A stretch of DNA of 13,588 nucleotides, from contig JBGCDR010000090.1 in NCBI GenBank assembly GCA_045105515.1, forward strand, positions 1-13,588. Reading direction: 5' to 3'. This document shows, piece after piece, positions 1 to 13,588 of the stretch (positions are counted from its first letter, which is position 1; each line of letters begins with the position of its first letter). This stretch comes from Oligoflexales bacterium (GTDB lineage: Bacteria > Bdellovibrionota_B > Oligoflexia > Oligoflexales > Bog-1112). Position numbers and translations under genes: made by a program. The notes beneath the pieces were generated by a model. That model was not told where the DNA came from. It saw only the letters and a program-made list of their open reading frames with translations, and ran no database searches.

Positions 1-158
1 AAAAATCTCTCACCGGTTGATTTTATTTTGCTCAATTCTATTTCCAATGGATTGTCGCGGGAAAGTAAAATATTAGGTAGCTTTAATTCGGCGATATCGC
101 GCTGCATGATTTGAGAGTTTTTTTTGTCCAAACTAGAGTAAGATGCTTGTGGTTCCAA
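1..158 (-). CDS. Probable further frameshifted C-terminal continuation of the PRS-Ppx fusion (or 5' end of a next gene), running off the window
   Basis: The -1 frame relative to the 83..607 ORF is open from 158 to the window edge: LEPQASYSSLDKKNSQIMQRDIAELKLPNILLSRDNPLEIELSKIKSTGERF. No family recognised. Confidence 0.35.
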   Translation of the reverse strand, partial: MEPQASYSSLDKKNSQIMQRDIAELKLPNILLSRDNPLEIELSKIKSTGERF

Positions 159-754
159 TTACCCAGCAAACCTAAAATACCTTGCCATAATTTCCCGGAT
201 TCAAGCATTGAATTTCCCTGTATTCGACTCGCTATCCCAGGAACACTGCTCAGGCCTCCAATTGCTATGATGCGATTGCTTTTCTGTAGGCATTCCATAA
301 ACTCGCTACTTGCCACAGGAAGCTGTTTTCTAAGAGCTATTTGGTAAAGTCTAAGAGCCTTCTTGCTAATGGGGGCAGGATGTTTTCGTGTTGCACTAGC
401 TTCCGCAAACTGTTTGAATAGTTGAGTAGCTGGTATGGATCCCACAGATCCTTGGTAAGTGAACAGTGATTCTGGACTTTTCTCACAGGTGATTTGAAAA
501 CTACCTCCCCCATGGTCCCAAGAAGTGAGCCGAGTTTCCTTCTTGCTTAGATATTTTGCAGTGTGGTGTCCAAGCAGAGCCTCTTGTTCTTGGCTAATTA
601 TACGCACGGGAATGGGAAGTTTTTTAAGCTTTTTATTGATGCTTTCCTCTTGGCAAACTTTACGTAAGGCTTCTGTGCCAATTGCAGTATATTGAATCCC
701 AGGATAACGAACATCTAGGTCTTTTTTGACCTTGGCAAGGACTTTATTAGATCC
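83..754 (-). CDS. Ppx/GppA-family (ASKHA fold) phosphatase domain; frameshifted continuation of the prs-like ORF
   Basis: The frame of the 83..607 ORF is open from 754 and reads KVLAKVKKDLDVRYPGIQYTAIGTEALRK...IPVRIISQEQEALLG...WDHGGGSFQI...SVGS...IIAIGG. These match Ppx/GppA motifs ATxAxR, IISGxEEA and DIGGGSxE. The first motif (DIGS) lies in the upstream ORF. Confidence 0.8.
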   Translation of the reverse strand, partial: GSNKVLAKVKKDLDVRYPGIQYTAIGTEALRKVCQEESINKKLKKLPIPVRIISQEQEALLGHHTAKYLSKKETRLTSWDHGGGSFQITCEKSPESLFTYQGSVGSIPATQLFKQFAEASATRKHPAPISKKALRLYQIALRKQLPVASSEFMECLQKSNRIIAIGGLSSVPGIASRIQGNSMLESGKLWQGILGLLGNWNHKHLTLVWTKKTLKSCSAISPN

Positions 755-2307
755 TCAATGGTCTGTCCAATGCTCTTAGAATTTGCATCTGTAAAAATGC
801 TTCTAGCAATAGGAACCTTGAAACTTTGGTTCTCATGTATATTGAATCCCTGTTCGCTGTTTTGGGAGGCTACTAGAACTTTAGTTTTTGAAGAGCCAAT
901 ATCGATAATACCCTGAAAAGCGCCTGTTTCCAGATGTTCTAAGCGTCTGATGTGCTTGGCTAAAGTGGGAGCTAAGGAGACTTTGGTGAAATTGGCTGCT
1001 GGTACAGATTTCATATTAAAGCTATCGGTTAGAAGCATCTCTTCAATAATCGTTCCACCCAGCGCAAGTAGTTTTTTTGCATCGCCTGCAAGGTGAGTGA
1101 CAGCGAGGATAATTTTTTGAGCCCCATGTTGATGTAGAATCTGACTTGCCTGAGCAAGGGTAGAACCCCTGCTAACTTCATCATCGATCAGAACCAAGGT
1201 TTTGCCTTCTACGCTCTTTAAGCCTTCGCCATCAAATACAGTGGCCTCGCCTCCGATTTCTCTTTGTTTGTTTAGGACAAGGACAGGAGTGTTTAAAGCT
1301 TGAGCGAAATGGGTAGCTTCCTTTTGAAAACCTGCATCTGGAGAAACTACCAAATCAATAGGGTAAGGCCTAAGCTTGAGTGCTTCCACAATACTTGCCC
1401 TGCTACTCAGATTAAATGCAGGACATTTGAAAAACCCGAGGCTTTGTCTCGCATGAGCCTGTACCACAGTAATTGCAGACATCCCCGCAACTTCTAACAA
1501 ATTTGCAATAAGAGCGCCCTGGGGAGCTACTCCCCATTCACTCTCTGCTTTATCTAAACGTGCGTAAGGAAGGTAAGGGGTTATCACATGGACCATAGAA
1601 CCACGCTCACTAACTAACTTGTAAATTTGTTCCATAGTTTCAAGGATTTTCGTGTTGCCCGGAAAGCTGTTTTCGGCAACAAGATAAACTGTACTATTCT
1701 CTAGGTTTTTAGTCTGTAGCGCTTCCCAGCTAAGTCCTTCCACACCAAGCAGCTGAGCAATGTTGTCCCGCAATTGAGGGTGCTGGTCGCCAGCCAGGTG
1801 AAAAGAATTTTTCTTTTTTGCAGTCCGTGGAGTGATAAGAGTTTTATTCAACTGGTGTACTTTTTTGCCGATCAGTAGCTCGTTTGCGCCAGCTGCTGCT
1901 AGCATGGATTTGACAGGCAATCGAAAAGGAAGAAGCGATTCAATATCTGAACCTGCTTCTAAAACCACAGTGATTTTACTTGCCATTGCTTTTTGGGCAG
2001 CGGAAATTTTGAATAGCAGTTCAATAAAGCCGTTTGCACTCAGTTTGCTTGAACTTAAGGTGGCTACAGATTTTTTCGCTAACAAGTAAGGGTCTTGTCC
2101 TTTTTCTTTGCTGGGGTTGAGACGGACAAAGGTATTACCATTTGAGAACTCTTTGGTTTCATCTTCGATTCGTTGACTGCCTAAGATTAGCTCTTCTAAT
2201 TTCGGATTTTGAACTTCCCGAAGCTTCAAGGAATAGTCAAAACTTTTGGCAAAACCTGGGCTTAAGATGAGAAGGTTAATCCAGATGAGGGGGAAGAAGC
2301 ATTTCAT
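715..2307 (-). CDS. prs: Ribose-phosphate pyrophosphokinase (PRPP synthetase)-like protein with signal-peptide-like N-terminus, duplicated N-terminal domain and the start of a fused Ppx/GppA domain; continues in the -1 frame past ~745
   Basis: PRS motifs: VITPYLPYARLDK (cf. PYFGYARQD), LIANLLEVAG, VQAH (cf. DLH), VVSPDAG, NKQR (catalytic K/R), LIDDEVSRGSTL (PRT loop), VTH, LTDS. It ends with the Ppx/GppA motif IIDIGSSKTKVLV. Start moved to ATG 2307 (MKCFF) because SD AAGGAG (2314-2319) lies 6 nt upstream. Confidence 0.85.
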   Translation of the reverse strand: MKCFFPLIWINLLILSPGFAKSFDYSLKLREVQNPKLEELILGSQRIEDETKEFSNGNTFVRLNPSKEKGQDPYLLAKKSVATLSSSKLSANGFIELLFKISAAQKAMASKITVVLEAGSDIESLLPFRLPVKSMLAAAGANELLIGKKVHQLNKTLITPRTAKKKNSFHLAGDQHPQLRDNIAQLLGVEGLSWEALQTKNLENSTVYLVAENSFPGNTKILETMEQIYKLVSERGSMVHVITPYLPYARLDKAESEWGVAPQGALIANLLEVAGMSAITVVQAHARQSLGFFKCPAFNLSSRASIVEALKLRPYPIDLVVSPDAGFQKEATHFAQALNTPVLVLNKQREIGGEATVFDGEGLKSVEGKTLVLIDDEVSRGSTLAQASQILHQHGAQKIILAVTHLAGDAKKLLALGGTIIEEMLLTDSFNMKSVPAANFTKVSLAPTLAKHIRRLEHLETGAFQGIIDIGSSKTKVLVASQNSEQGFNIHENQSFKVPIARSIFTDANSKSIGQTIEDLIKSLPRSKKT

Positions 2308-2338
2308 AATTATCTCCTTAAAAGTAGTCATTAAAAAC

Positions 2339-2937
2339 TTATTTACGAAATAAAATGGTGCTGGGAATTGGTAAGTTGGTAGCGCCTCCTTCCGAGGCTA
2401 TTTCTGTAAAAGCAAAAAATTCTATAGCTTTAGCTCCTGCCTGATCAATCAGGTCGATTGCAGCTTGCGCTGATCCGCCTGTGGCAACTAAGTCGTCCAC
2501 TATAAGTACTTTCTGACCTACTTCAAGTGTGGATTGTGCGAGTTCAAAGGCGTCATACCCGTACTCCTTTTTATAACTACTTTGGAAACAAGGGCCTGGT
2601 ATTTTCCCAGCTTTTCGGATGGGGACAAAAGGTAGCTGCATTTTTTCACCAAGAATGCTCCCTAACAGGAATCCTCGAGCCTCGAGACCAACAAGATCCG
2701 TCCTTTGTATTGATTACTAAGGTAAGAAGTAATTTCTCTTAGTAATCCAGGGTCTTGGAAAATCCCTAACACATCCTGAAAAAGGATACCTGGCTTCGGA
2801 AAATTAGCTATAACCCGGGTTTTCTCAGAGGCTTTGCGTACCCAATCCAGCCTCATGTCCCCATACTTAACTGTTGATGCCAAACAAGAAACTTGTAAAT
2901 TGAAAAGTATCGCTAATGCAAGGTTCAATGCTTTCAT
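2339..2937 (-). CDS. apt: Adenine phosphoribosyltransferase with signal-peptide-like N-terminal extension; one -1 frame break near 2702
   Basis: 5' part: RVIANFPKPGILFQDV...DP. The -1 frame reads TDLVGLEARGFLLGSILGEKMQLPFVPIRKAGKIPG...YKKEYG...VLIVDDLVATGGSA, all diagnostic APRT motifs. Start ATG 2937 (MKALN) has SD GAGGAG (2945-2950) 7 nt upstream. Confidence 0.9.
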
Positions 2938-2952
2938 TATCGCTCTCCTCAT

Positions 2953-2973
2953 ATAGTGTTAAAATGACACTTA
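2953..2973. promoter_or_regulatory. Predicted NrtR operator
   Basis: atAGTGT-taaaatg-ACACTta: inverted repeat with the GT-N7-AC core typical of NrtR boxes. It lies between the divergent apt and nrtR, immediately upstream of the apt SD. Confidence 0.75.
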
Positions 2974-3048
2974 CTGAATAAATTTAATCTTTGCTGCAGT
3001 CAAGGCTTTATTAGTGTAAATTTCAAAATATTTGTAATTGGAGGTAGT

Positions 3049-3750
3049 ATGGCTAAAAACAATCAACTGGAATCCCGGGAAAAAGCTGCGCTCACCGTTG
3101 ATTGTGTTGTGTTTAGCCCCAGTTTAGATGGCAATCGAGTTCTTCTTATTAAACGCAAAAAAGCACCTTTTCAGGGAAAGTGGGCACTACCTGGCGGTTT
3201 TCTTGAGTCAGGAGAGTCTTTAGAGGATTGTGGTCGCAGGGAGCTTATTGAAGAAACGGGAGTAGGTGGAATCTACCTTAAGCAATTTCACACCTTTTCT
3301 CAGCCTTTCCGAGATCCACGTGGTCGCGTCATTACTGCTGCTTACTTTGCAATTATTCGCGCTCAGGACCATGGCCTAAGGGCGTCTGAGGATGCTGATG
3401 AGGCTAAATGGTTTTTTTTAAACCATGTTCCTTCACTTGCTTTTGATCATCAGCAAATTTTAGGGGAAGGAGTCGATGCAATGCGCTCAGATTTGATTCG
3501 CAGTAGGACCCTGTTTGATATTCTTCCTAAACGTTTTACCTTGAGCCATGCTCAAGAGCTTTTCGAATGTTTATTGAATCTAAAACTTGATAAACGAAAT
3601 TTCCGTAAAAAATTTTCTGGTTTTTCATTTGTTGTGGAGACGAAAGAAACTCTAAGAGGCAAAAAACAGCGTCCAGCTAGGTTATTCGAGTTTGATGCAC
3701 TGAAATTCAAGCATGAAACTAGTATGGATCTACGCTTGGTATTGATTTAA
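3049..3750 (+). CDS. nrtR: NrtR-family Nudix-related transcriptional regulator (Nudix domain + C-terminal winged HTH)
   Basis: TVDCVVF, VLLIKR..PFQGKWALPGGF, Nudix box, RDPRGRVIT.AY, LAFDH..I, then wHTH motifs LPKRFTL, LDKRNFRKK, RPARLF. SD GGAGG at 3040-3044. Confidence 0.9.
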   Translation: MAKNNQLESREKAALTVDCVVFSPSLDGNRVLLIKRKKAPFQGKWALPGGFLESGESLEDCGRRELIEETGVGGIYLKQFHTFSQPFRDPRGRVITAAYFAIIRAQDHGLRASEDADEAKWFFLNHVPSLAFDHQQILGEGVDAMRSDLIRSRTLFDILPKRFTLSHAQELFECLLNLKLDKRNFRKKFSGFSFVVETKETLRGKKQRPARLFEFDALKFKHETSMDLRLVLI

Positions 3751-3781: not shown

Positions 3782-5395
3782 CTATAGTTGTGGTGCCTGC
3801 ACCGATTCCTGTGCTTCAACATTAGAAGAACCGGGGAAATAAGGATTCATACCTGGAATTATTTGTCCGTTTCTTTCGAATTGGTAAGCAAGGGCAAGGC
3901 CAAAATAAACGGTCGATGCAGTGTGGGGAGTAAAATAGTAGGACCAAGTAATTCCCGTATTACAACATGAACCGTCGGGAGTATCACTATGAGCAGGGAT
4001 CCCTGAATTGCCATATTGATCGAACATAGCTTTAACACCAGAACGTAATTTATCGATATCTTCGCTCGCATTGTTCTGATGAAAATCATTCAAGGCAAGA
4101 AGTGCTGCCCCAGTGTTTTCTCCTTGAATACCAGTGCCTATATTAGTGAACTTAACTCCCCAAATAGGCTGACCTAGCTTGGAAGTAAAATCAGGGTCCT
4201 GGATCATGAAAGTTGGCGTTACTAAGGAAGTCATAGACTCTTCTGACCTGTCTGCATGAAGCATGGAGTCAGCCTCAGCTTTTGCGAGGTGACGCCAAGT
4301 AATCGCATCAACTGGAACAAAAGCATTGTTCTGTGCAGTATTAGCATTGCAAGCTGGTTCCGTGCCTGTTCGGTAGCGCTTATTGGCGCTGTCATACATT
4401 TGGCTAACAAAGGTCCCTGCTACCTTCTGGACATCCTCAGAAATGGTATTAACTCCGGGTTCGGCTATTTTTGCAGCTTCTTGAACACAAGTTCCGAGGG
4501 CATACATATCAAGGTTGTGCTCAATTGATTGCCAGTATGCAGTTTTGGTGCTTGTTGGTCGGCCCATATACCCTCGATAGGGACCCGTTGTACACTGGAA
4601 ATTATTATGAATTTCGGACATCATAGCTTTAGAAGCATTATAATATTCCTTGTGAAGATCTGTATTCGGAGCATCATCAGCAAACTGGAGGTAGTACCTG
4701 CAAAATGCTAAGGCCATCATAGAATTATTGCCAACATCTAGGAAATCACCACCATTGTCTATCCATGATGCGGGACCGAGGTCAATATGATTTACTTTAG
4801 GCCAAAAAAGTCCTTTACGATAATTATCATTAGCTAGGGTCCACTTATGCATACGTAACCAGCTATCAAGAATTTTTGCAGATTTTTGAGGTTTGCCTAT
4901 AACAGTGAAAAATATTGAAACTAAGGCGTTGTCATAGGTATCAGAAGCCGCATAGAATAGTTCACCTTCCTCAACATCATAAGTCCTTACTGTGTAAGCA
5001 TTAGAGTCGTCACTAGCTGTTGCTTGTCTGGTTTGACTTTCTATATACTTCTCAACGTAGCCTAAATACTGATTCTGGCTTGTGTCATTTAGTTTATATT
5101 TACCTCCAGGAGGAGGTGGTGGTGGAGTATTTTCATTACTGGAAGTACCTTCATCATCGGACGAATTATCATCATTAGAGCTTGTTCCTTCAGAATCACT
5201 GTTAGAAGAACCTGCGCCACTGGAGCCTATTTCGGTAGAGTCTGTACTATTCGATCCTTCATCTTTAATATCTTTTTCTGCGTCAAGGCCGGCATCAAAC
5301 CTTTCTGTCCGTTTCTGTTCTTTGATTTCTCCTACTGTACAGGCAGAAATAAAATACAAAATGAAAACGCTTGAAATCGTTTTAATTAAATTCAT
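3782..5395 (-). CDS. Lipoprotein with Ser/Asp/Pro-rich linker and putative six-hairpin glycosidase-like catalytic domain
   Basis: Lipobox FISAC after a hydrophobic stretch; start ATG 5395 with SD GAGGA. Low-complexity S/D/N linker and PPPPPP. The C-terminal ~430 aa are paralogous to the C-terminal domain of 5610..8441. The fold call is inference. Confidence 0.65.
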   Translation of the reverse strand: MNLIKTISSVFILYFISACTVGEIKEQKRTERFDAGLDAEKDIKDEGSNSTDSTEIGSSGAGSSNSDSEGTSSNDDNSSDDEGTSSNENTPPPPPPGGKYKLNDTSQNQYLGYVEKYIESQTRQATASDDSNAYTVRTYDVEEGELFYAASDTYDNALVSIFFTVIGKPQKSAKILDSWLRMHKWTLANDNYRKGLFWPKVNHIDLGPASWIDNGGDFLDVGNNSMMALAFCRYYLQFADDAPNTDLHKEYYNASKAMMSEIHNNFQCTTGPYRGYMGRPTSTKTAYWQSIEHNLDMYALGTCVQEAAKIAEPGVNTISEDVQKVAGTFVSQMYDSANKRYRTGTEPACNANTAQNNAFVPVDAITWRHLAKAEADSMLHADRSEESMTSLVTPTFMIQDPDFTSKLGQPIWGVKFTNIGTGIQGENTGAALLALNDFHQNNASEDIDKLRSGVKAMFDQYGNSGIPAHSDTPDGSCCNTGITWSYYFTPHTASTVYFGLALAYQFERNGQIIPGMNPYFPGSSNVEAQESVQAPQL

Positions 5396-5546
5396 TTGGT
5401 TCCTCAATTCTACTTATTTTGCGTACGCTTGTGGCTTATCGGTGTTTTAAGGAAGAATGATTATTGAAAATTAATAATTCAAATATAATAGCCTGATACA
5501 GAGTTAAATATTTAAAAGAACCAGCTAAGGTAATGGTGGCTAGCAT

Positions 5547-5609: not shown

Positions 5610-8441
5610 TTATTCAAATACTGGAATGACTACAGATTCGATTCTATCGTACCCTGAAGGTTCCGTCTGATAAGGGTTCTCTCCAAGCAGACCTAGGATA
5701 GAATAGGCAGTTGACGCAGTGTGAGGCGTATTAAAATAGCTCCAAGTTAAGCCCGTATTGCACGAAGGGTCAGTGAAGTGTGGGCAGCTAGAGCCTACTG
5801 CATCGTCGTGGGCAGGTAAACCGCCATTTCCTTCCTGAGTAAACAGTGCGGTAAGGCTATTTTCTATCAGTGTTGCTTTTGCAGAGAATCCACCATGCAT
5901 TTTTAGTGCTAGGAGCGCAGCACCAGTATTTTCTGTTTGAGTGCCATAAGCATCTGCTTTATTGGTAAACCTAACACCGTAATAGGGATTAATTCCATTA
6001 AAGTTTTCTTGTACCCAAACACCACCTTCACCATTTGCACTTTCAGGGGTCGTCAACCAGGTTAGAGATCTAGTATCATCTCCAGTGCTTCTGAATCCTG
6101 CTCCTGACATATAGCGCCAAGAAGCCATGTCAGCTGGAAACCTATCAGGTGTGTTGATAGCGGAAGAGTTGATGTCGTCAATGGTACCAATACGGTATGA
6201 ACCTACGTTGTTATCCCACATAGCTCTGACAAAATCGTCGGCAACGGTTGTGAAGTCGGTGATTCGACTAGTGCTATATCCTTGTCCTGCAGGAATATAC
6301 TGTTGCATACACTTACCTAAAGCATATAAATTAACATGGTGTTCAGCCGATGCATAACCTGCAGTATCACGACCTATAAATCTTCGAATCCCATTATTTT
6401 GTAAGCGAGTTCGATAGATATAATCTAAGATTTGATAAGCCCTATCGTAATAAGGGAGGAGATTTGCTTCGGAAGCACCGTTACCTCTGTATTGGTTAAA
6501 GTACCGGCAAAATGCGATTGCCATATAGCTGTTGTTTCCAAGGTCTTCGGCGGCAGGTTCAAGGAAGTTGGGAAATAAGGTTTTAGAAAAGACTCTTTGT
6601 GTTAAGAGCTTAATTTCCTTATTAACCGAGTTGCCATATTCCTCGGCAGACTTGTACATTCTAAGATAAGTACTTAGTATCTCACCTGCTTTGCTTGCTC
6701 GGCCTGTTACGGTGTAATAAATTGCCGTCAGACCGTTGTCGTAAACATCACTAACCCGGTGAAAGACATTGCCTGATGGGACATTATATGTATTAAGTGT
6801 ATAGTTTGTGAACGGCAAACCTGAGTCAAGAGGAATGTCTACTCCATTGGAATGGTAATGAGTCTGTACTTTCTTTTGAGATTCAAAGAAAGCATCGGCC
6901 TTTTGAACATAAGAATAGTAAGGTGAACTAGTAATAGATCCAGACCCTCCTTGTCCACCACCACTACTTCCATCAACCGCGATTACTTCGATTTGATCGA
7001 GGTTCGGGCCACCGCTAAGGTTTGAAGAATTAATCTTTATTGAGCTAATAGGTTCAGAAACAGTAAATTCATCTGTGGTTTCAGTGACCCAATTAGCCCA
7101 AGTTCTAGGTGCCTGCGAAGTATCATATCTGAACTGGATTACGATTCCAGTATCGTTACCGTTGACAATTAATTTGGAACGTCGATGTGCATTGTTTCCG
7201 TAGCGAACTTTAATTTTATAAGTTCCTGCTTCATAATTAAGACCATTCCATGTGACGCTAGCATTATAGCCGCGATAATCGACAAAACCACCATTAGAAT
7301 TCCCATAAGGATTCTGAGCAGCAGCCTTTACCAGGGTAGTATTATCTTCTGCCTGTAAAACACTAGGGCTTTGTGAGGGTGGAGGTTCTTGACCACCAAT
7401 CCTAACGAATTCAATCTTGTCTAAATTTGGGCCTCCACTGTAGCCATTCGCATCGATGCTAATCGTATTGATACTGTTATTAAAAGTAATGGTCTGGGTC
7501 TCAGAAACCCAGACTGCCCAATTAGCCTGACCTTGAACTGCAAGAGGAAATTGTGTCACCTCATTTCCATTAAGTTTCAAAGCCACGCGCCGAGGGGATC
7601 CGTTCCCATAATGAACTGTTGCCTGATACTCACCTGCAGGAAGGTTAACATTCCAAGTGACGCTGCCAGTAGAGTTATGAAAATCTACAAAACCAGAACC
7701 AGTACCACCATGATTAGTTGCAATACTAGCAGCATTTAGAGTTCCTTCTTCTGCTTGATATTCATCATCACCACTTGGAGGAGGTGGTGGTGGAGGATTC
7801 GCACCACTTAAGCTTAAGTCTTGCAGTGAACCGTCAGTATAAAGGTCTGCAATAGTGGAACCTTTACCCCCGCCGCACATATATTCAAGCGATACGCTAT
7901 TCGAACCAGAGTATGGCAAACTTGCGAATGGGCTCCAACTGCCGTTTACTTTTGATGATACAGTGGCGGTATTCGAGTTTAAATCTACCTTGACCTCCAT
8001 CGTATCTGCAGGGAAGTCTCTGTGTGCTAAAAGTCCATTTACTCCAGCCTTCAACTGGCGGAGAGAGCCGTATTCGAAAGTATACATTTCAAGTGTATGC
8101 GTCCCACTTTTGACTTTAAAAACCTGTGCATTTCCTGATGCACTTCTATCAATTGTAATTTTAAATTCAAGAGATTTATTATTGAGGTCATAGCTGTTAA
8201 TGCTTCTAATGCCATCATTGCTGTTGTTAGCACATTCCAGGCTACTAACAGAAGATGTTAAGGTGCTGCCATTACCGATTGACTCAAAGTGAGTTCCTGC
8301 TAAATCGAAACCAGATTCCTGTGAATCGACGATTGCGTTTTTCTCATCAATCTTGTGAACTTCCTGTGGGTCTACGGTAACACCGCAGGCAGTGGTAAAT
8401 AAAGTTGCACCGATACTTAGAATTATTTTCGAAATTTTCAT
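5610..8441 (-). CDS. Multidomain lipoprotein: beta-rich N-domain, two CBM6/CBM35-like modules, putative six-hairpin glycosidase-like domain
   Basis: Start ATG 8441 (MKISK...LFTTAC lipobox). Poly-Pro linkers. Two repeats YQAEEG...GSGFVDF...YGNG...W..W...GGPNLDKIE and LQAED...GGFVDY...YGNN...W..W...GGPNLDQIE are typical of CBM6/35. A Gly/Ser linker precedes the C-terminal domain, which is paralogous to the neighbouring gene. Confidence 0.75.
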   Translation of the reverse strand: MKISKIILSIGATLFTTACGVTVDPQEVHKIDEKNAIVDSQESGFDLAGTHFESIGNGSTLTSSVSSLECANNSNDGIRSINSYDLNNKSLEFKITIDRSASGNAQVFKVKSGTHTLEMYTFEYGSLRQLKAGVNGLLAHRDFPADTMEVKVDLNSNTATVSSKVNGSWSPFASLPYSGSNSVSLEYMCGGGKGSTIADLYTDGSLQDLSLSGANPPPPPPPSGDDEYQAEEGTLNAASIATNHGGTGSGFVDFHNSTGSVTWNVNLPAGEYQATVHYGNGSPRRVALKLNGNEVTQFPLAVQGQANWAVWVSETQTITFNNSINTISIDANGYSGGPNLDKIEFVRIGGQEPPPSQSPSVLQAEDNTTLVKAAAQNPYGNSNGGFVDYRGYNASVTWNGLNYEAGTYKIKVRYGNNAHRRSKLIVNGNDTGIVIQFRYDTSQAPRTWANWVTETTDEFTVSEPISSIKINSSNLSGGPNLDQIEVIAVDGSSGGGQGGSGSITSSPYYSYVQKADAFFESQKKVQTHYHSNGVDIPLDSGLPFTNYTLNTYNVPSGNVFHRVSDVYDNGLTAIYYTVTGRASKAGEILSTYLRMYKSAEEYGNSVNKEIKLLTQRVFSKTLFPNFLEPAAEDLGNNSYMAIAFCRYFNQYRGNGASEANLLPYYDRAYQILDYIYRTRLQNNGIRRFIGRDTAGYASAEHHVNLYALGKCMQQYIPAGQGYSTSRITDFTTVADDFVRAMWDNNVGSYRIGTIDDINSSAINTPDRFPADMASWRYMSGAGFRSTGDDTRSLTWLTTPESANGEGGVWVQENFNGINPYYGVRFTNKADAYGTQTENTGAALLALKMHGGFSAKATLIENSLTALFTQEGNGGLPAHDDAVGSSCPHFTDPSCNTGLTWSYFNTPHTASTAYSILGLLGENPYQTEPSGYDRIESVVIPVFE

Positions 8442-8543
8442 CCCGTCCCCGCTGAGTTTAAATTTTCTTAAGTGATTTTCCCGTAGCTTCCTATGCAAAA
8501 ACTTGCCTGAAGGTCAAGATTTGAAGATTACTTCGGGTTTCTT

Positions 8544-9105: not shown

Positions 9106-10206
9106 ATGCTGAGACGTTTATATCTTATTGGTCTGCTGCTGGGGTATGCCTATAACGCCATGGGTGTTGAACAAGAGTGGCTATTGGATTCTCCGCGTGT
9201 GTGGGGAAGAGGCAGGACTTTTGTTGCAGCACCAGATTCTGATGAAGCCAGTCGCTTTAATCCTGCTACCCTTGCCGAACCTGATATAAGTTTTCAGCTA
9301 AGGCTTTTGCAGCTCGATGGGATGATAGGTGAGAATACCATCGATACTATCAGTGACCTGGTTTCTGCAGCTGGTTCTAGTGATGCCATTGGTCTTTTGA
9401 GTAAGTTTGATAAGAAGTTTGGTGAACGCCAGTCTTTTAAGCTTCAAGGTTCTCTGTTTAGCATGCGCTTTGGCGCATTTGAGATCTCTCCGTTTGGCCT
9501 GAATAACTCTTGGTTGGAACTATCAAATCCTTCCATACCAAATATGGAATGGAAAGCTGATTCTCTTGCGGGATTAAGCATTTCCTATGGTCTAGAATTA
9601 TTTACTAGCTTCTTTATTGGCCTCACAGTACGACCCATGTACCGCTGGCATATAGCTGGCAATATCGCTTTTGTTGACATTATTGATTTTGTTGGCGCTA
9701 GTGATATCAATTTTGAAACTTTTACCCCTTTAACCAGTGGTGCCTATGTTGCCGGTGACCTAGGTATGGTGTGGAATCTATCACCTGATTTTCGTTGGGG
9801 ATTAACTTTTAGGAATATTGGAGATGCAAGCGTTACTAATGAGTTTGCCACTTCTCCTCCTGCATTAAGACAGATCGTAAGCACAGGAATCTTTTCTCGT
9901 TGGCCGGGGGATACATTTAACCTCGATTATTATCTTGATATTCACTCTCTCACTAATCGTGATGGTCTCAACCTTTTGCGTCTCGTTAATACGGGGGCCG
10001 AGCTGGGTACCTCCTATTTATCTAGAGATCATGATTTCGGCATACAAGCGGGGCTGAACGAAGGCTATTTTTGTACTGGAATGTTCGCAGACTTGCTTTT
10101 TATGCGCTTTGACCTTGTTAACTATGGGGTCGAGCTTGGGCATACTCCAGGGCAAATTCCAGAACGGCGCTGGGGTCTAAGTGCAAGATCGACTATGACA
10201 TTTTAA
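9106..10206 (+). CDS. Outer-membrane beta-barrel protein (FadL/TraF/PorV-like N-terminal motif)
   Basis: Signal peptide (..GYAYNAMG). WGRGRTFVAAPDSDEASRFNPATLA resembles the GMGGAxxAxxDDxxAxxxNPAGL plug motif. Alternating amphipathic strands (DLGMVW, WGLTFRNIG) and a C-terminal Phe. Confidence 0.7.
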   Translation: MLRRLYLIGLLLGYAYNAMGVEQEWLLDSPRVWGRGRTFVAAPDSDEASRFNPATLAEPDISFQLRLLQLDGMIGENTIDTISDLVSAAGSSDAIGLLSKFDKKFGERQSFKLQGSLFSMRFGAFEISPFGLNNSWLELSNPSIPNMEWKADSLAGLSISYGLELFTSFFIGLTVRPMYRWHIAGNIAFVDIIDFVGASDINFETFTPLTSGAYVAGDLGMVWNLSPDFRWGLTFRNIGDASVTNEFATSPPALRQIVSTGIFSRWPGDTFNLDYYLDIHSLTNRDGLNLLRLVNTGAELGTSYLSRDHDFGIQAGLNEGYFCTGMFADLLFMRFDLVNYGVELGHTPGQIPERRWGLSARSTMTF

Positions 10207-10217
10207 GGGCTTCTACT

Positions 10218-11138
10218 ATGTTAAAGATCTTTGCAGTTTTTCTGGTCGCAGGGTTTGCAATGGCATCTTTGAACTCTTGCGGGATGAATTTCTTTGAACC
10301 TATTGCATCTTCAGATTCGGATCATTATCACATGGAGCAGGCGCGCATCTATGTAGATCAAAAAAAGTATGCTGATGCTGAGGCTTCGCTTGCAAAAGTA
10401 GAAGGTAACTCCAATGAAAAGACCCTCCTGCTTGTTGGCAGTAAGCTTGGCAATGTTGGCTTGAGCCTTTGGGAGATATTACTAGATGTTGTTGATTCCC
10501 TGACGAATAGCTCTAGTAGCAGTAGCTCAGGAATGGAACAGGTTTTTAATGTTTTTTCTGATACTTTGTTTGGCACTGGTGATGAGCGTGATGACAAACT
10601 TGAAGCGATTAATGAAAGCATCGCTCTAATTCGCAGTGCCCCGGAGCAAGACTCCAAGATGGAAGCTTTTCGCTGTTTTTTATCAGGGATCTATGTATTA
10701 CCTATCGTTAATGATGGAACTTCGGCAATGGTAAACGTGACCACTGCCCTAAATAGCCTAGAGTCTTCTGTAAGTGGTGATGGAAGCAACGGAGATCAGT
10801 GTCCCGGCTTGGATGCTTTTCAGGCAGCTATGAGTGGGCTCGAGACAGTGAGAAATGGCTTAGATTTTATCATCCAACAAACGGCTGACTGTGAGCTTTT
10901 ATCCTTTTTATCTGAGTCGGGAGACTTAAATGCAATCTCAGAGCGCCTGAGAAAATTTGTAGAAGCCGCCGATCAAGGTTGCCCAACCATTACTTGTAAT
11001 AATGATGCTCTTTGTGAAGCTCTTCAATTAGGTTGCGTAGCAGACCTTTTGGATACCAGTTCTGCAGTTGCAGGTGATGGCATAGTAGATCAGTGCGAAC
11101 TTGTTTATAACTGTACGACCGCAGGTACCTGCTTCTAA
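10218..11138 (+). CDS. Cys-rich, mostly helical lipoprotein with a TPR-like motif; probably co-transcribed with the barrel gene
   Basis: Lipobox LNSC; HMEQARIYVDQKKYADAEASL is TPR-like; 10 further Cys; starts 11 nt after the barrel stop. Confidence 0.7.
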   Translation: MLKIFAVFLVAGFAMASLNSCGMNFFEPIASSDSDHYHMEQARIYVDQKKYADAEASLAKVEGNSNEKTLLLVGSKLGNVGLSLWEILLDVVDSLTNSSSSSSSGMEQVFNVFSDTLFGTGDERDDKLEAINESIALIRSAPEQDSKMEAFRCFLSGIYVLPIVNDGTSAMVNVTTALNSLESSVSGDGSNGDQCPGLDAFQAAMSGLETVRNGLDFIIQQTADCELLSFLSESGDLNAISERLRKFVEAADQGCPTITCNNDALCEALQLGCVADLLDTSSAVAGDGIVDQCELVYNCTTAGTCF

Positions 11139-11284
11139 AACTTCTTTATCCTTCCTCGGTTTTCCTGAATCGGTCAAATACCATCATAACATAATGAAAT
11201 TATTAAATATTAATAGCATTTGGTTGCCTTTGAGTTAAAAGTGGGTAGCTTAGGTTCCATCGATATTCCCTAATGGAGGAGCTA

Positions 11285-12616
11285 ATGCTCGGGCTTGAAA
11301 TTGCTGTGGTTTTGTCTGCAATCTTCCTAGGTGCACGTCTTGGAGGAATTGGTCTAGGGGTGATGGGGGGACTGGGCCTAGCTGTTTTGACTATATTTTT
11401 TCACTTGAAGCCTACCCAGCCACCTATCGATGTACTGTTAATGATTACTGCGGTAGTGACTGCAACCTCAGCTCTACAGACTGCTGGAGGACTTGACTAT
11501 CTTGTAAAACTGGCTGAACGATTTTTAAGAAACAAGCCGGAGAGAATCACTTTTTATGGACCTTTTGTGTCCTACTTTTTTACCTTTGTTGCAGGTACAG
11601 GGCATGTAGCATATTCCATTCTTCCTATTATCGCCGAGGTAGCGAGGGAAACTGGAGTACGACCTGAGCGCCCTTTATCTGTTTCAGTCATAGCCTCACA
11701 GCATGCGATTACTGCTAGCCCAATATCAGCAGCAACTGTTGCTCTCCTTGGCTTAACTGCCGACAAGGGTATTGAATTGATTCATATTCTTGGCGTATGC
11801 GTCCCTTCTACTCTGAGCGGAGTTTTTTGTGCTGCTTTTCTTATGCGAAAATATGGCAAAGAACTTCATGAAGTAAGTGCGGACAGCACTAATTCCACTG
11901 AAATTCTCAAGACTCAAGGAAGGGTGCCGGTATATCGTAGCGCAAAGGATGATGTTATGGCGAAAAAAAGGGCAAAGCTTGCCGTATTTATATTTATAGC
12001 TGCAGTGGTAATGATCGTTGCCTGTGGGAGTTCTCCATCTTTGCGGCCAGCTTGGCAAGAAAATGGTGTGATGCATGCTTTGAATATGCCTATTCTAATT
12101 GAGATTATCATGCTTTCTGCAGCGGCACTGATTCTACTATTTGGCAAGGTTAACGTCGCTAAGGTTCCCGAAGGAACTGTATTTAAAGCTGGAATGCAGG
12201 CTGTTATTGCAATATTTGGGATTGCATGGATGGGTGATACTTTTTTTGTTAGCCATGGTGAAAGTATAAGTGGGGCTATAAAAGATATGGTGCTTATGGC
12301 TCCGTGGAGTTTTGCATTAGCTCTTTTTGTCTTTTCTATTTTCCTTTTCAGCCAGGCGGCAACTGTTCGCTCTTTAGTACCTTTGGGAGTGCAGTTAGGA
12401 ATTCCAGCCCCTTTCCTGATTGCAATGTTCCCTGCTGTAAATGGTTATTTCTTTATACCTAATTACCCAACGGTCGTCGCAGCGATTGGTTTTGACCAAA
12501 CGGGGACTACTCGTATAGGAAGGTATGTTTTGAACCACAGCTTTATGTTGCCTGGTCTTGTGACCGCTGTGGTGTCTGTTGGAATGGGCTTTCTAATAAG
12601 CTATCTTTTTCTGTGA
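11285..12616 (+). CDS. Anaerobic C4-dicarboxylate transporter, DcuA/DcuB family
   Basis: IFLGARLGGIGLG, AGGLDYLV, AGTGHVAYSILPIIAEVA, RPERPLS, ITASPISAA, AIFGIAWMGDTF, SQAAT, FPAVNGYFFIPNYPT, DQTGTTRIGRYVLNHSFMLPG. Start ATG 11285 favoured by SD GGAGG (11275-11279); 11273 is the alternative. DcuA versus DcuB is not resolved. Confidence 0.93.
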   Translation: MLGLEIAVVLSAIFLGARLGGIGLGVMGGLGLAVLTIFFHLKPTQPPIDVLLMITAVVTATSALQTAGGLDYLVKLAERFLRNKPERITFYGPFVSYFFTFVAGTGHVAYSILPIIAEVARETGVRPERPLSVSVIASQHAITASPISAATVALLGLTADKGIELIHILGVCVPSTLSGVFCAAFLMRKYGKELHEVSADSTNSTEILKTQGRVPVYRSAKDDVMAKKRAKLAVFIFIAAVVMIVACGSSPSLRPAWQENGVMHALNMPILIEIIMLSAAALILLFGKVNVAKVPEGTVFKAGMQAVIAIFGIAWMGDTFFVSHGESISGAIKDMVLMAPWSFALALFVFSIFLFSQAATVRSLVPLGVQLGIPAPFLIAMFPAVNGYFFIPNYPTVVAAIGFDQTGTTRIGRYVLNHSFMLPGLVTAVVSVGMGFLISYLFL

Positions 12617-13088
12617 TTTTTATACCTTCATGTTGTAGAAGCCAACGTTTAATCCCTAGACCCCCTCCATAACCAACTAGCTGACCATTACTGCCAACTA
12701 CCCTATGGCAAGGTATGATTATAGGCAATGGGTTGCGGTTGTTTGCCATTCCTACTGCTCTGCTAGCTTTTGGGTTTTTGCAAGACTTTGCAATGTCGCC
12801 ATACGAGCAACTCTGACCCCACGGGATTCTGCGAAGATGTTGCCATACTTTTTGCTGAAAATCTGTTCCTTCAGGAGCTAAAGGGAGATTGAAGTGTCTA
12901 GTTTTCCCCTGAAAATATGCTTCAAGCTGAGCGAGGGTAAGGTCTATACAACTATTACTTTGCTTAGGCATTTTAGGAGGCTTGCGATTTCCACAAAAAT
13001 CAAGCCCTCTTAAACCGTCACGATCCGCATGTACTAGAATCCAGCCTATTGGAGTGATGATAGAACCTGCCGATATACTTCCTCTCAT
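12543..13088 (-). CDS. ogt: Methylated-DNA--protein-cysteine methyltransferase
   Basis: TPIG, QLEAYFQG..HF.LPL, GTDFQQKVW..L..IPWG...SYG.IA, RAVG.AN..NP, active site IIPCHRVV, GYGGGL..KRWLL.HE. Confidence 0.95.
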   Translation of the reverse strand: MRGSISAGSIITPIGWILVHADRDGLRGLDFCGNRKPPKMPKQSNSCIDLTLAQLEAYFQGKTRHFNLPLAPEGTDFQQKVWQHLRRIPWGQSCSYGDIAKSCKNPKASRAVGMANNRNPLPIIIPCHRVVGSNGQLVGYGGGLGIKRWLLQHEGIKITEKDSLLESPFQQTPQRSQDQAT

Positions 13089-13441
13089 ATATTTTCTTCC
13101 ATTTGTATTTTTCGATCGTTTTAATCAATTCAGCGATGTTAACACCGCCGATAAACCTTTTGCAAATTATAATTTCTTGCAAAAAAAACTCTAGGGTCAG
13201 GCCTCTTTTCCAGTCACTGTCCAGCTTTTGAGCGTATTTGACATGCCCCCTTGAACTACTAGCGGAAATTAACTCTGAGTTTCGATAGCTTACCGCCGTA
13301 AAAATTGGTTTTTTTTGTTTGACAGCCAGGCATGTATCACATAAAAACCCTTTCATCCCAACGATGAGTTGGAAACAAGAAGCTCTTTGAAAACTGAATA
13401 GCATTGAAAAGAATTAAGAAAAACCCTGTCAAAAACGGAGA

Positions 13442-13578
13442 GTTGGCTAAGGTTGTGAAGCCTTAGCAACATAAAGTCTTTGACTTTCTTATAGTAAATT
13501 AAGTCGCTTCGAGAGCGGTCATTGCGATCGCAATTGTCACCCGAATGTTACGTAGACGTCATCTCGACTAAGCGTAGC
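13442..13578 (+). other. Hairpin-rich non-coding segment, possible structured 5' leader or ncRNA
   Basis: Stem-loop 13442-13470 with GUGA (GNRA) loop. Further stems at 13473-13487, 13505-13517 and 13547-13578, and a perfect palindrome at 13521-13534. No family recognised. Confidence 0.35.
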
Positions 13579-13588
13579 AAGTGGAGAG

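Follow-up and report, generated by a model that had tools for sequence, protein, structure and literature searches.

Phosphoribosyl pyrophosphate (PRPP) synthetase (PRS) and adenine phosphoribosyltransferase (APRT) are textbook cytoplasmic enzymes, and neither ATP nor PRPP is expected outside the cell. The familiar enzymes that act on external nucleotides before uptake, such as UshA, CpdB, NadN of Haemophilus and the ecto-NTPDase of Legionella, are exported hydrolases, which require no activated co-substrate. A 13,588-nucleotide stretch of DNA from an Oligoflexales bacterium (contig JBGCDR010000090.1 of assembly GCA_045105515.1), referred to here as the window, contains what appears to be a two-gene operon made of an APRT gene (apt) followed by a gene fusing a PRS-like protein to a Ppx/GppA-like domain. 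Both products start with predicted Sec-type leaders, and the operon lies divergent from nrtR, which would encode its local repressor. The window is the entire contig C90 of a 6.29-Mb metagenome-assembled genome (MAG) of 461 contigs, with a completeness of 90.9% and a contamination of 4.8%.

The operons closest to this one are regulated by NrtR. According to Rodionov et al. (2008, PMC2330246), NrtR family members are responsive to ADP-ribose, and an additional prs paralogue is often under their control; such second copies occur in prs-nadV operons, and the consensus operator has a GT-N7-AC core. The PRPS-like phage enzyme Adps, as described in PMC13586617, has a remodelled loop after its DD pair and pyrophosphorylates ADP-ribose. 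A full-text literature search retrieved no description of an exported PRS or APRT, in agreement with a first-pass annotation of the window, which knew of no account of such a module.

With confidence slightly above even, we favour the reading that the locus is an exported nucleotide-conversion operon, divergent from nrtR, which is now inactivated in this strain. The component families are known; what is new is the addition of a leader, the domain duplication, the gene fusions and the neighbourhood of exported proteins.

Predicted leaders of the two enzymes

The N-terminal segments are present exactly as quoted in the first-pass annotation, MKALNLALAILFNLQVSCLA/ST in the APRT and MKCFFPLIWINLLILSPGFA/KS in the PRS-like protein, and the strong Shine-Dalgarno sites that it placed ahead of the two genes are found as GAGGAG and AAGGAG. 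Both segments fit the Sec type I pattern, with a positive n-region, a hydrophobic h-region and small residues at positions -3 and -1; the criteria included an h-region of 10-15 residues and the lack of a lipobox and of a twin-arginine motif. The apt leader has a Cys at -3 of the predicted cut, which does not match the lipobox pattern. The leader calls were made by a crude hydropathy script together with by-eye reading and are heuristic.

That the leaders would be conserved in homologues is borne out in P0006 and P0007, the intact orthologues of the PRS-like gene, in P0062, the best APRT relative, all three from other metagenomes, and across the PRS-like family. The leader of P0006 and P0007 is clearly homologous to that of the PRS-like protein in the window, and the leader of P0062 has the same length as the APRT leader of the window and likewise ends in C-L-A. 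The length, the n-h-c layout and the small residues at the predicted cut are kept, while the sequence drifts. A pattern search, in which each species was represented by a single genome, yielded 19 loci, one of them cut at its 5' end, and all 18 with a complete 5' end start, as judged by eye, with a hydrophobic segment. Long PRS paralogues occur in 4 of the 40 related genomes searched, each with a hydrophobic start, and three of the 19 loci are from these relatives. An ordinary prs is present in all 41 genomes, the MAG of the window among them. Of 26 close family members 21 are flagged by the script, the five misses being leader-like by eye or having an upstream start call, and it flags one of 35 other PRS matches, which is a partial family member.

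An exhaustive hidden Markov model search among 1.84 billion representatives, using the extra N-terminal domain of the family alone, returned 96 proteins at E <= 1e-10. A hydrophobic leader is called by the script in 82 of these, and the rest are fragments, upstream start calls and leaderless PRS that do not exceed the canonical length (213-315 aa). The family thus comprises about 80-96 clusters at 50% identity. For the APRT, leaders are present in three of the four best non-self relatives (P0062, P0065 and P0066), the fourth, P0064, being a truncated call. These three are the only true leaders among the 120 APRT matches listed; the other 115 have none apart from two false positives of the script, and the APRTs of the related genomes are leaderless.

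The predicted Sec-type leaders of both enzymes are therefore conserved and not a product of chance. Since cleavable leaders of this type would place the catalytic domains outside the cytoplasm, in the periplasm or beyond, we infer that the APRT and the PRS-like protein are exported and cleaved. The hydrophobic N-termini could instead be wrong starts or uncleaved anchors of cytoplasmic salvage paralogues. An in-frame Met 27 codons downstream in the window apt would give an APRT of canonical length, and the substrates are cytoplasmic. However, P0062 has no Met at that place, nor any other between leader and domain, so that homologues do not start downstream of the leaders, a point that the annotation had raised against its own proposal. 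Strong Shine-Dalgarno sites precede the upstream starts, the leader layout and the small residues before the cut persist despite the drift in sequence, and leaders are found in 82 of the 96 family members compared with effectively none of the canonical PRS. Even an uncleaved anchor, with its positive N-end inside, would still place the enzyme outside. Cytoplasmic paralogues are accordingly a very improbable explanation.

The PRS-like family and its partners

The PRS-like gene starts 31 nt past the apt stop. Its product is matched by the Pfam families Pribosyltran_N, Pribosyltran and Pribosyl_synth and passes the subfamily model TIGR01251 (177 bits, cut-off 113); it passes none of the Prs equivalog models (for example NF002844, 143 versus a cut-off of 438). 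The AlphaFold2 model of residues 21-470 has a pLDDT of 88.6 and a pTM of 0.89. Its Foldseek match to PRS has an E value of 2.7e-20, and model residues 147-450 superpose on the PRS chain 8dbc_A with Z of 31.0 and a root-mean-square deviation of 2.2 A over 285 aligned residues. The core retains the catalytic His, the Lys and Arg of the catalytic loop, the Asp of SPDxG, the DD pair and the Arg of YxRQD. Alignments A1 and A2 show no variation at R250, H285, D324, K347, R349, D375 and D376; the PRS residues examined were chosen partly after PMC13586617. The motif PDxGGxxRA is replaced by PDAGFQK(D/E)A, which is invariant in the family.

The first ~146 residues of the model lie outside the part that superposes on solved PRS chains and form an extra domain. 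The profile of this domain (A4) aligns in hhalign with residues 45-149 of the canonical Prs of the same genome (probability 96.3%, E 1.5e-9), which identifies it as a partial duplicate of the PRS N-domain. In its motif F-x-N-x-N-T-x-V the F and both N are invariant in 18 of 18 sequences. It keeps an altered flag hairpin and lacks the PYxxYxRQD motif. The extra domain could supply in cis what the neighbouring subunit supplies in ordinary PRS. Four leaderless PRS of 213-315 aa (P0255, P0262, P0267 and P0030) have a flag motif F-x-N-D-N-T-F-V like that of the extra domain, and such proteins may mark the source of the duplicated domain.

P0006 (779 aa) and P0007 (772 aa) are 66% and 65% identical to the window protein, and each contains leader, PRS-like part and Ppx-GppA domain in one open reading frame (ORF). 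In the source annotations, members of the family are called simply ‘ribose-phosphate pyrophosphokinase’. In tblastn, residues 532-733 of P0006 and 527-726 of P0007 match positions 748..140 of the window in frame -1, with identities of 69% and 62%, respectively. The window frame scores 33.5 bits against Pfam Ppx-GppA (PF02541, cut-off 27), and the orthologues score 53.5 (P0006) and 52.5 (P0007) over ~240 of the 285 model positions. The domain reaches 62 bits against TIGR03706, which has a cut-off of 307, and glycine-rich motifs of the ASKHA type are readable in the window frame.

Over positions 1986-2387, a second strain of low abundance (depth 2-3) differs by ~8%, mostly at third codon positions. 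Between 1986 and 2245 there are 21 differing sites, of which 17 are third positions of the PRS-like frame, indicating that this frame was under purifying selection. The second strain also has an extra base after 2332, in the spacer between apt and the PRS-like gene.

The window apt is matched by TIGR01090 with 120-122 bits over model positions 48-157, and its second frame with 25.9 bits. Its C-terminal part is 88% identical to residues 84-201 of P0062 (118 residues) and includes the PRPP loop VDDLVATGGS. P0062 (201 aa) is intact and leader-bearing and exceeds the cut-off of the APRT equivalog NF002636 (171.9 bits versus 125), with an alignment that begins at residue 35. Its leader of ~20 residues is followed by a linker of ~14 residues, so that the start FPKxG(I/V) of the domain is placed at residue 46, compared with a median of 14 in the 75 of the 120 listed APRTs that have this motif. 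Of the two enzyme identities originally proposed, the APRT therefore stands, at equivalog grade in P0062, and the ‘PRS’ turns out to belong to a distinct paralogue family and not to be an ordinary Prs with a leader.

The pairing of apt with the PRS-like::Ppx gene, the conservation of which the first-pass annotation proposed to examine, recurs in P0062 with P0007 and in P0064 with P0006. The members of each pair list a longest contig of equal size and hence are probably on one contig. P0064, linked to the intact fusion P0006, was called at only 150 aa with a start inside the domain, and could represent either a further broken apt or an artefact of gene calling.

Other loci have related partners. 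In L049 the leader, the PRS-like part, an NTPase_I-T domain and an APRT form a single ORF of 769 aa, directly followed by nrtR. A YjjX-type NTPase fused to APRT lies upstream of the PRS-like gene in L043 and L059, and the NTPase alone stands beside it in L045. LOG-like genes directly adjoin the PRS-like gene in eight of the 19 loci (L046, L047, L051, L052, L055, L057, L058 and L061) and are one gene away in L048. The partners, both of the NTPase-APRT and of the LOG/SLOG kinds, are nearly all leader-bearing, and 10 of 12 LOG-like proteins keep PGGxGTxxE, a motif of LOG enzymes. In a maximum-likelihood tree the window protein forms a clade with P0006 and P0007 (support 100/100), within a supported group (95/97) of all APRT-linked forms; the LOG-linked forms are placed elsewhere.

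These neighbourhoods would also fit exported enzymes that are delivered into a prey or host cell, act as weapons and drain the adenylate pool of the victim catalytically. In such a scheme the PRS-like enzyme would burn ATP (ATP + ribose-5-P -> AMP + PRPP) and its partner would strip AMP to adenine, with ribose-5-P regenerated by the LOG-like enzyme, or with the APRT reversed with PPi. The adjacency to exported LOG-like genes and the retention of their motif speak for it. By established enzymology each enzyme would make the substrate that the other uses, exported proteins of unknown families are arrayed at the loci, and an immunity protein would not be needed since no ATP is expected in the periplasm of the producer. 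However, no delivery system is linked to the loci, and the window version has APRT and Ppx and no LOG, so that the loop is not closed. There is also no likeness to known toxins or defence effectors beyond the generic phosphoribosyltransferase (PRTase) loop (~20 bits): in PADLOC-DB, the matches to ShosT and PRTase_III-A (18-27 bits) are confined to this loop, and the LOG-like proteins and two further families, U1 and U2, have no match. We consider a weapon unlikely for the set as a whole; attack by an ATP-to-adenine drain would be most plausible for the LOG-linked forms.

The loci of the LOG type consist of arrays of leader-bearing proteins, including ones of 540-810 aa with a C-terminal LOG/SLOG domain, and L057 has six leader-bearing genes in a row. 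U1 (a common domain of ~300 aa) and U2 (~500 aa, with faint kinase-like hints) are recurrent exported families in these arrays, and a search of the ESM Atlas with both gave no lead (best scores 0.78). Some array proteins have weak kinase-like or NIF-phosphatase matches. Other MAGs encode, close to the module, a RING finger, leucine-rich repeats, NIF/CTD-type phosphatases and a Ser/Thr kinase (L043 1758-2918; L060 1-1335; L053 1585-3048 and 8979-10466; L054 9544-10602), and such eukaryote-like domains hint at an interaction with eukaryotic hosts.

nrtR, the candidate operator and the lesions of the operon

The full Nudix box is readable in the translation of nrtR. The protein does not pass the NF050029 equivalog (130.9 versus a cut-off of 400), and it is the only NrtR_WHD protein encoded in the genome. 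The GT-N7-AC box that the first-pass annotation reported opposite nrtR is present as a perfect palindrome, AGTGT-N7-ACACT. The genome contains three perfect copies of it, and the 8-base core occurs 15 times compared with ~76 expected from composition, so that there is no enrichment. The fusion gene of a relative that is linked to nrtR has two upstream boxes of the form AGTGTC-N6-AACAAT, which have AGTAAGTGTC-N6-AACA in common with the window box. The weight of the box comes from its position and from the near-identical box before the only other nrtR-linked locus. A wider NrtR regulon was rejected, because the other two sites lie inside an ORF (C379) or by OmpA-like and unknown genes (C214), with no NAD genes near. 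A consensus promoter scan of 2938-3048 reported no sigma-70-like site, and its totals did not exceed those of shuffled sequences. Only 2 of the 41 related genomes have nrtR, and in both it is a neighbour of exported PRS-like and APRT genes, so that synteny of nrtR with the module is seen in each related genome that has it.

The link to NrtR raises the possibility that the PRS-like protein is a diphosphokinase for another ribose-bearing acceptor, either ADP-ribose, as in Adps, or a nucleotide, and that NrtR controls an ADP-ribose route. The response of NrtR members to ADP-ribose and their frequent control of a second prs (PMC2330246) would fit this, as would the activity on ADP-ribose of a PRPS-like fold with a remodelled post-DD loop (PMC13586617). 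The family has invariant non-canonical loops, PDAGFQK(D/E)A and DDE(T/V)(A/S)xG(G/S)T, together with an altered flag motif, and none of the Prs equivalog models is passed. However, the partner in the window is an APRT of equivalog grade, which uses PRPP, and nrtR is found at only 2 of the 19 fetched loci plus the window. No gene of the NAPRTase family (PF04095) was found in the 90.9% complete genome, and no NadV/Namat-type gene was found among the Pfam-scanned neighbours in the 19 loci or among the ORFs of the window. A reading as a NARP1-like system of Adps and Namat was rejected for the lack of such a partner in the genome. Adps moreover retains the Asp after the DD pair (PMC13586617), whereas the family here has Ala or Ser. 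Another acceptor is therefore distinctly unlikely, and a changed substrate of the PRS-like enzyme is possible in view of its altered motifs.

The proteins had initially been described as frame-repaired, which is accurate. The frame of apt changes near 2695-2700, at a site that is not a homopolymer, and the PRS-like/Ppx gene is broken near 748-754, where the orthologues track frame -2 as far as about nt 750 and are in frame -1 from 748 onward. Two codons ahead of the stop of the PRS-like ORF there is a dnaX-like A-AAA-AAG heptamer. A programmed -1 frameshift at this heptamer was rejected, because P0006 and P0007 are already in the second frame ~30 nt upstream, where NKVLAKVKK aligns to DKVLKEVKQ; the break is thus an ordinary frameshift mutation further upstream. 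Logan contigs, made by another assembler from three runs, match positions 114-3100 with 0 differences and 0 gaps. Runs X2 and X3 give one contig of 13,296 nt each, with a depth of 33-35, and X1 gives three pieces; all three runs come from a single study and probably represent the sample from which the MAG was built. On the identity of these contigs, a sequencing or assembly error behind the two internal breaks was rejected, and the breaks, reproduced by the other assembler, are present in the DNA and are not assembly errors of the MAG.

The third lesion is at the left end of the window. Positions 1-140 recur, with 99-100% identity, in 11 further contigs of the MAG, in each case as the outermost 136-140 nt at a contig end. 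The read-contig depth of this repeat is far above that of the rest of the window, and the similarity to the orthologues ends at nt 140. The last ~47 codons of the gene are found on contig C381 (2467 to 2327; 74% identity, E 2.5e-18), where they adjoin the other end of the repeat (C381 2466-2605, L082), which is common to at least 15 contig ends. The two ends of the repeat have a 15-nt inverted terminal repeat in common, and the same 6-bp direct repeat stands on both flanks. The repeat is an insertion sequence (IS)-like insertion in the PRS-like::Ppx gene. A presumed third frameshift at an A9 run (~113-125) was rejected, being the junction with this multi-copy repeat. An ORF on the minus strand (3..158), which has no Pfam match, reads outward from the window end into the element. 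That many contigs of the MAG break at the element suggests IS expansion. Beyond the gene tail on C381 there is a convergent gene for an exported transglutaminase-like protein of 618 aa, so that the operon ends with the fusion gene.

Three independent lesions are therefore present in ~3 kb of the operon; nrtR is intact, as are the remaining genes on the contig. The lesions, two frameshifts and one IS-like insertion, are all inactivating. In this genome the operon is probably non-functional, a young pseudogene cluster. The features are collected in Table 1.

Table 1. Features of the operon region, with positions in the window
Feature	Position	Strand	Basis or remark
Terminus of the IS-like element, a multi-copy repeat that has inserted into the 3' part of the PRS-like::Ppx gene	1..140	.	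not part of that gene
Ppx/GppA-like (ASKHA) domain	140..748	-	tblastn, Pfam; different frame from the PRS-like ORF
Frameshift lesion at the passage from the PRS-like ORF (stop 715-717) to the Ppx continuation	715..754	-	overlapping open frames
PRS-like ORF, 530 aa: leader, extra N-terminal domain, full PRS fold, first ~55 Ppx residues	718..2307	-	
Complete two-domain PRPP-synthetase fold	898..1809	-	AlphaFold2 model, structure superposition
Extra N-terminal domain, PRS N-domain homologue with F-x-N-x-N-T-x-V	1819..2238	-	hhalign
Predicted Sec-type signal peptide of the PRS-like protein, 20 residues	2248..2307	-	ends GFA before KS
Shine-Dalgarno AAGGAG of the PRS-like gene	2314..2319	-	6 nt upstream of ATG 2307..2305
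apt, C-terminal part, 124-codon open frame including the PRPP-binding loop	2339..2713	-	TIGR01090 and P0062
apt, N-terminal part, leader and first ~60 APRT residues	2662..2937	-	reading frame, model and orthologue matches
Predicted Sec-type signal peptide of the APRT, 20 residues	2878..2937	-	ends CLA before ST
Shine-Dalgarno GAGGAG of apt	2945..2950	-	7 nt upstream of ATG 2937..2935
Candidate NrtR operator, perfect palindrome AGTGT-N7-ACACT	2955..2971	.	between nrtR and the apt Shine-Dalgarno site, 4 nt upstream of the latter
nrtR, 233 aa, intact, Nudix and NrtR winged-helix domains	3049..3750	+	Pfam NUDIX 75 bits, NrtR_WHD 64.1 bits

The remainder of the window encodes two lipoprotein-like paralogues of 541 and 962 aa on the minus strand (3782-5407 and 5610-8498). 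They have in common, by eye, a C-terminal domain of ~400 aa, which has no Pfam match, and the longer one contains two CBM35-type modules and a Pro/Gly/Ser-rich linker. These are followed by two neighbouring exported proteins of 366 and 306 aa without a Pfam or NCBIfam match (9106-11138), a DcuA/DcuB C4-dicarboxylate transporter (11273-12616) and an Ogt methyltransferase (12543-13088, minus strand). The right end (13400-13588) is common to the ends of C82 and C312 by exact 40-nt probes, which probably represents an assembly-graph overlap or another repeat. An Rfam scan of the window gave 0 families, and the stretch was not found in any of the RNA runs searched.

Biological meaning and comparison with known systems

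Six full-length genes for TLC/NTT nucleotide transporters are present in the MAG (C74, C181, C166, C40, C393 and C190; L066-L071). NTT genes occur in 15 of 15 relatives of the same family, in 1-6 copies each, in none of 25 genomes from other families of the order and in none of 14 control genomes. With six such importers, the lineage evidently lives with the nucleotides of another cell in reach. Their presence across the lineage is an answer to the objection, raised with the original proposal, that the periplasm has no ATP, and the six carriers fit its suggestion that nucleotides are available from prey, host or lysed cells. The records of the relatives carry the labels Oligoflexia, Bdellovibrionales or Pseudobdellovibrionaceae. 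Bdellovibrio bacteriovorus reportedly takes up intact nucleoside monophosphates and possesses a system for transporting ATP.

In the reading we favour, the operon would be part of a rare set of exported nucleotide-converting enzymes in Bdellovibrionota/Oligoflexia-type bacteria, comprising PRS-like proteins, APRT, YjjX-type NTPase and LOG-like N-glycosidases. The role of this set would be to turn nucleotides, ribose phosphate and adenine derived from a host or prey into importable forms, taken up for example via the six NTT-type carriers. An intact operon would interconvert adenine, ribose-5-P/PRPP, AMP and ATP and would hydrolyse polyphosphate or nucleoside polyphosphates. NrtR would couple its expression to the state of ADP-ribose and NAD, with repression until ADP-ribose rises. 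What is observed is the order of the genes, the conservation of the leaders, a PRS fold plus an extra domain, the three lesions and the link to nrtR; the substrates, the direction of the reactions and the regulation by ADP-ribose are inferred. In the present genome this system would have been inactivated recently, by the frameshift in apt, the frameshift in the PRS/Ppx gene and the IS-like insertion near its 3' end.

Several points weigh against this reading. PRS needs ATP and APRT needs PRPP, neither of which is known to be supplied by the periplasm barring contact with a host or prey cell. The leader calls are heuristic. In the core of the PRS-like protein, the catalytic N-domain has lost its flag hairpin, RQD has become R(S/L)D throughout the family, and the Asp after the DD pair (DTGGT loop) is Ala or Ser, giving (A/S)xG(G/S)T; lacking these canonical substrate-site features, the core may perhaps not synthesize PRPP. 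The module is patchy, with strong matches in 5 of the 131 genomes of a phylum sample, it was not found in a genome of the same genus, and G018 carries a PRS-like gene and no NTT gene. NrtR is cytoplasmic and its presumed targets would act outside, which makes the regulatory logic puzzling. As to the inactivation, the contigs of the three runs exclude an assembly slip only, so that a fixed library error or a rare intact allele may remain, and an intact minority allele is possible since contigs drop rare variants.

The extracytoplasmic adenylate/PRPP pathway first proposed thus keeps the conserved export signals on both enzymes, and its PRPP synthesis becomes uncertain given the extra domain and the altered substrate-site motifs. 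The question of ordinary cytoplasmic copies likewise divides. A leaderless housekeeping prs, separate from the window gene, is present on C65, and no second apt was found in the 90.9% complete genome. A second, weaker PRS-family match (68.8 bits) is on C134, and an ordinary ppx, separate from the Ppx domain of the window, is on C108.

A broader proposal, which for now is doubtful, is a lineage-specific extracellular nucleotide conversion by predatory or host-associated Bdellovibrionota/Oligoflexia, in which a re-engineered PRS would be exported, with the flag element of the neighbouring subunit supplied in-chain by the duplicated N-domain, and would work with exported LOG-like enzymes or with APRT/NTPase on victim ATP <-> adenine + PRPP, either to kill or to harvest the adenylate pool for import. 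The leader-bearing PRS-like proteins and their APRT, NTPase and LOG neighbours would imply phosphoribosyl chemistry in a compartment fed by another cell. If true, this would be a new layer in the harvest or destruction of nucleotide pools by predatory or host-dependent bacteria, alongside the NTT importers. It would also be a case from nature in which the PRS scaffold has been remodelled, possibly into a pseudo-dimer within one chain, and would give NrtR a role that goes beyond NAD salvage in the cytoplasm. The intact P0006, P0007 and P0062 make the idea directly testable. The lesson of the present genome is more ordinary, that of a young pseudogene cluster in an IS-rich genome.

Compared with class I PRPP synthetases (8DBC, 6ASV and 1DKU), the family described here has the same two-domain fold and catalytic residues and passes TIGR01251. 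Unlike them, it has a Sec-type leader and an extra half-PRS N-domain, the canonical FSDGE flag hairpin, the Gln of RQD and the Asp of DTGGT are changed or missing in its core, and it is fused to Ppx/GppA or, in one relative, to NTPase and APRT. The prs-nadV operons of NrtR in Shewanella oneidensis, Acinetobacter and other bacteria (PMC2330246) are alike in having a second prs by nrtR, a GT-N7-AC palindrome and a separate housekeeping prs in the genome. They differ from the window in that the partner here is apt and not nadV, both genes are leader-bearing, and the operon is divergent from nrtR.

Phage Adps of the NARP1 system (PMC13586617) is similar in its PRPS-like fold, its remodelled post-DD loop and its link to ADP-ribose, which here exists only via NrtR. 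Adps is a cytoplasmic hexameric enzyme of ~280 aa that is paired with Namat and keeps the Asp after DD, whereas the family here has a leader, an extra domain, Ala or Ser after DD and no Namat. With Apt (NF002636, TIGR01090), P0062 is an equivalog-grade match that differs by its leader and linker, and the copy in the window is frameshifted. The window domain related to Ppx/GppA (PF02541) is divergent, fused behind an exported PRS-like enzyme, and split by a frameshift and an insertion. Finally, in contrast to the periplasmic and secreted hydrolases named at the outset, the exported enzymes of this locus are transferases that need ATP or PRPP.

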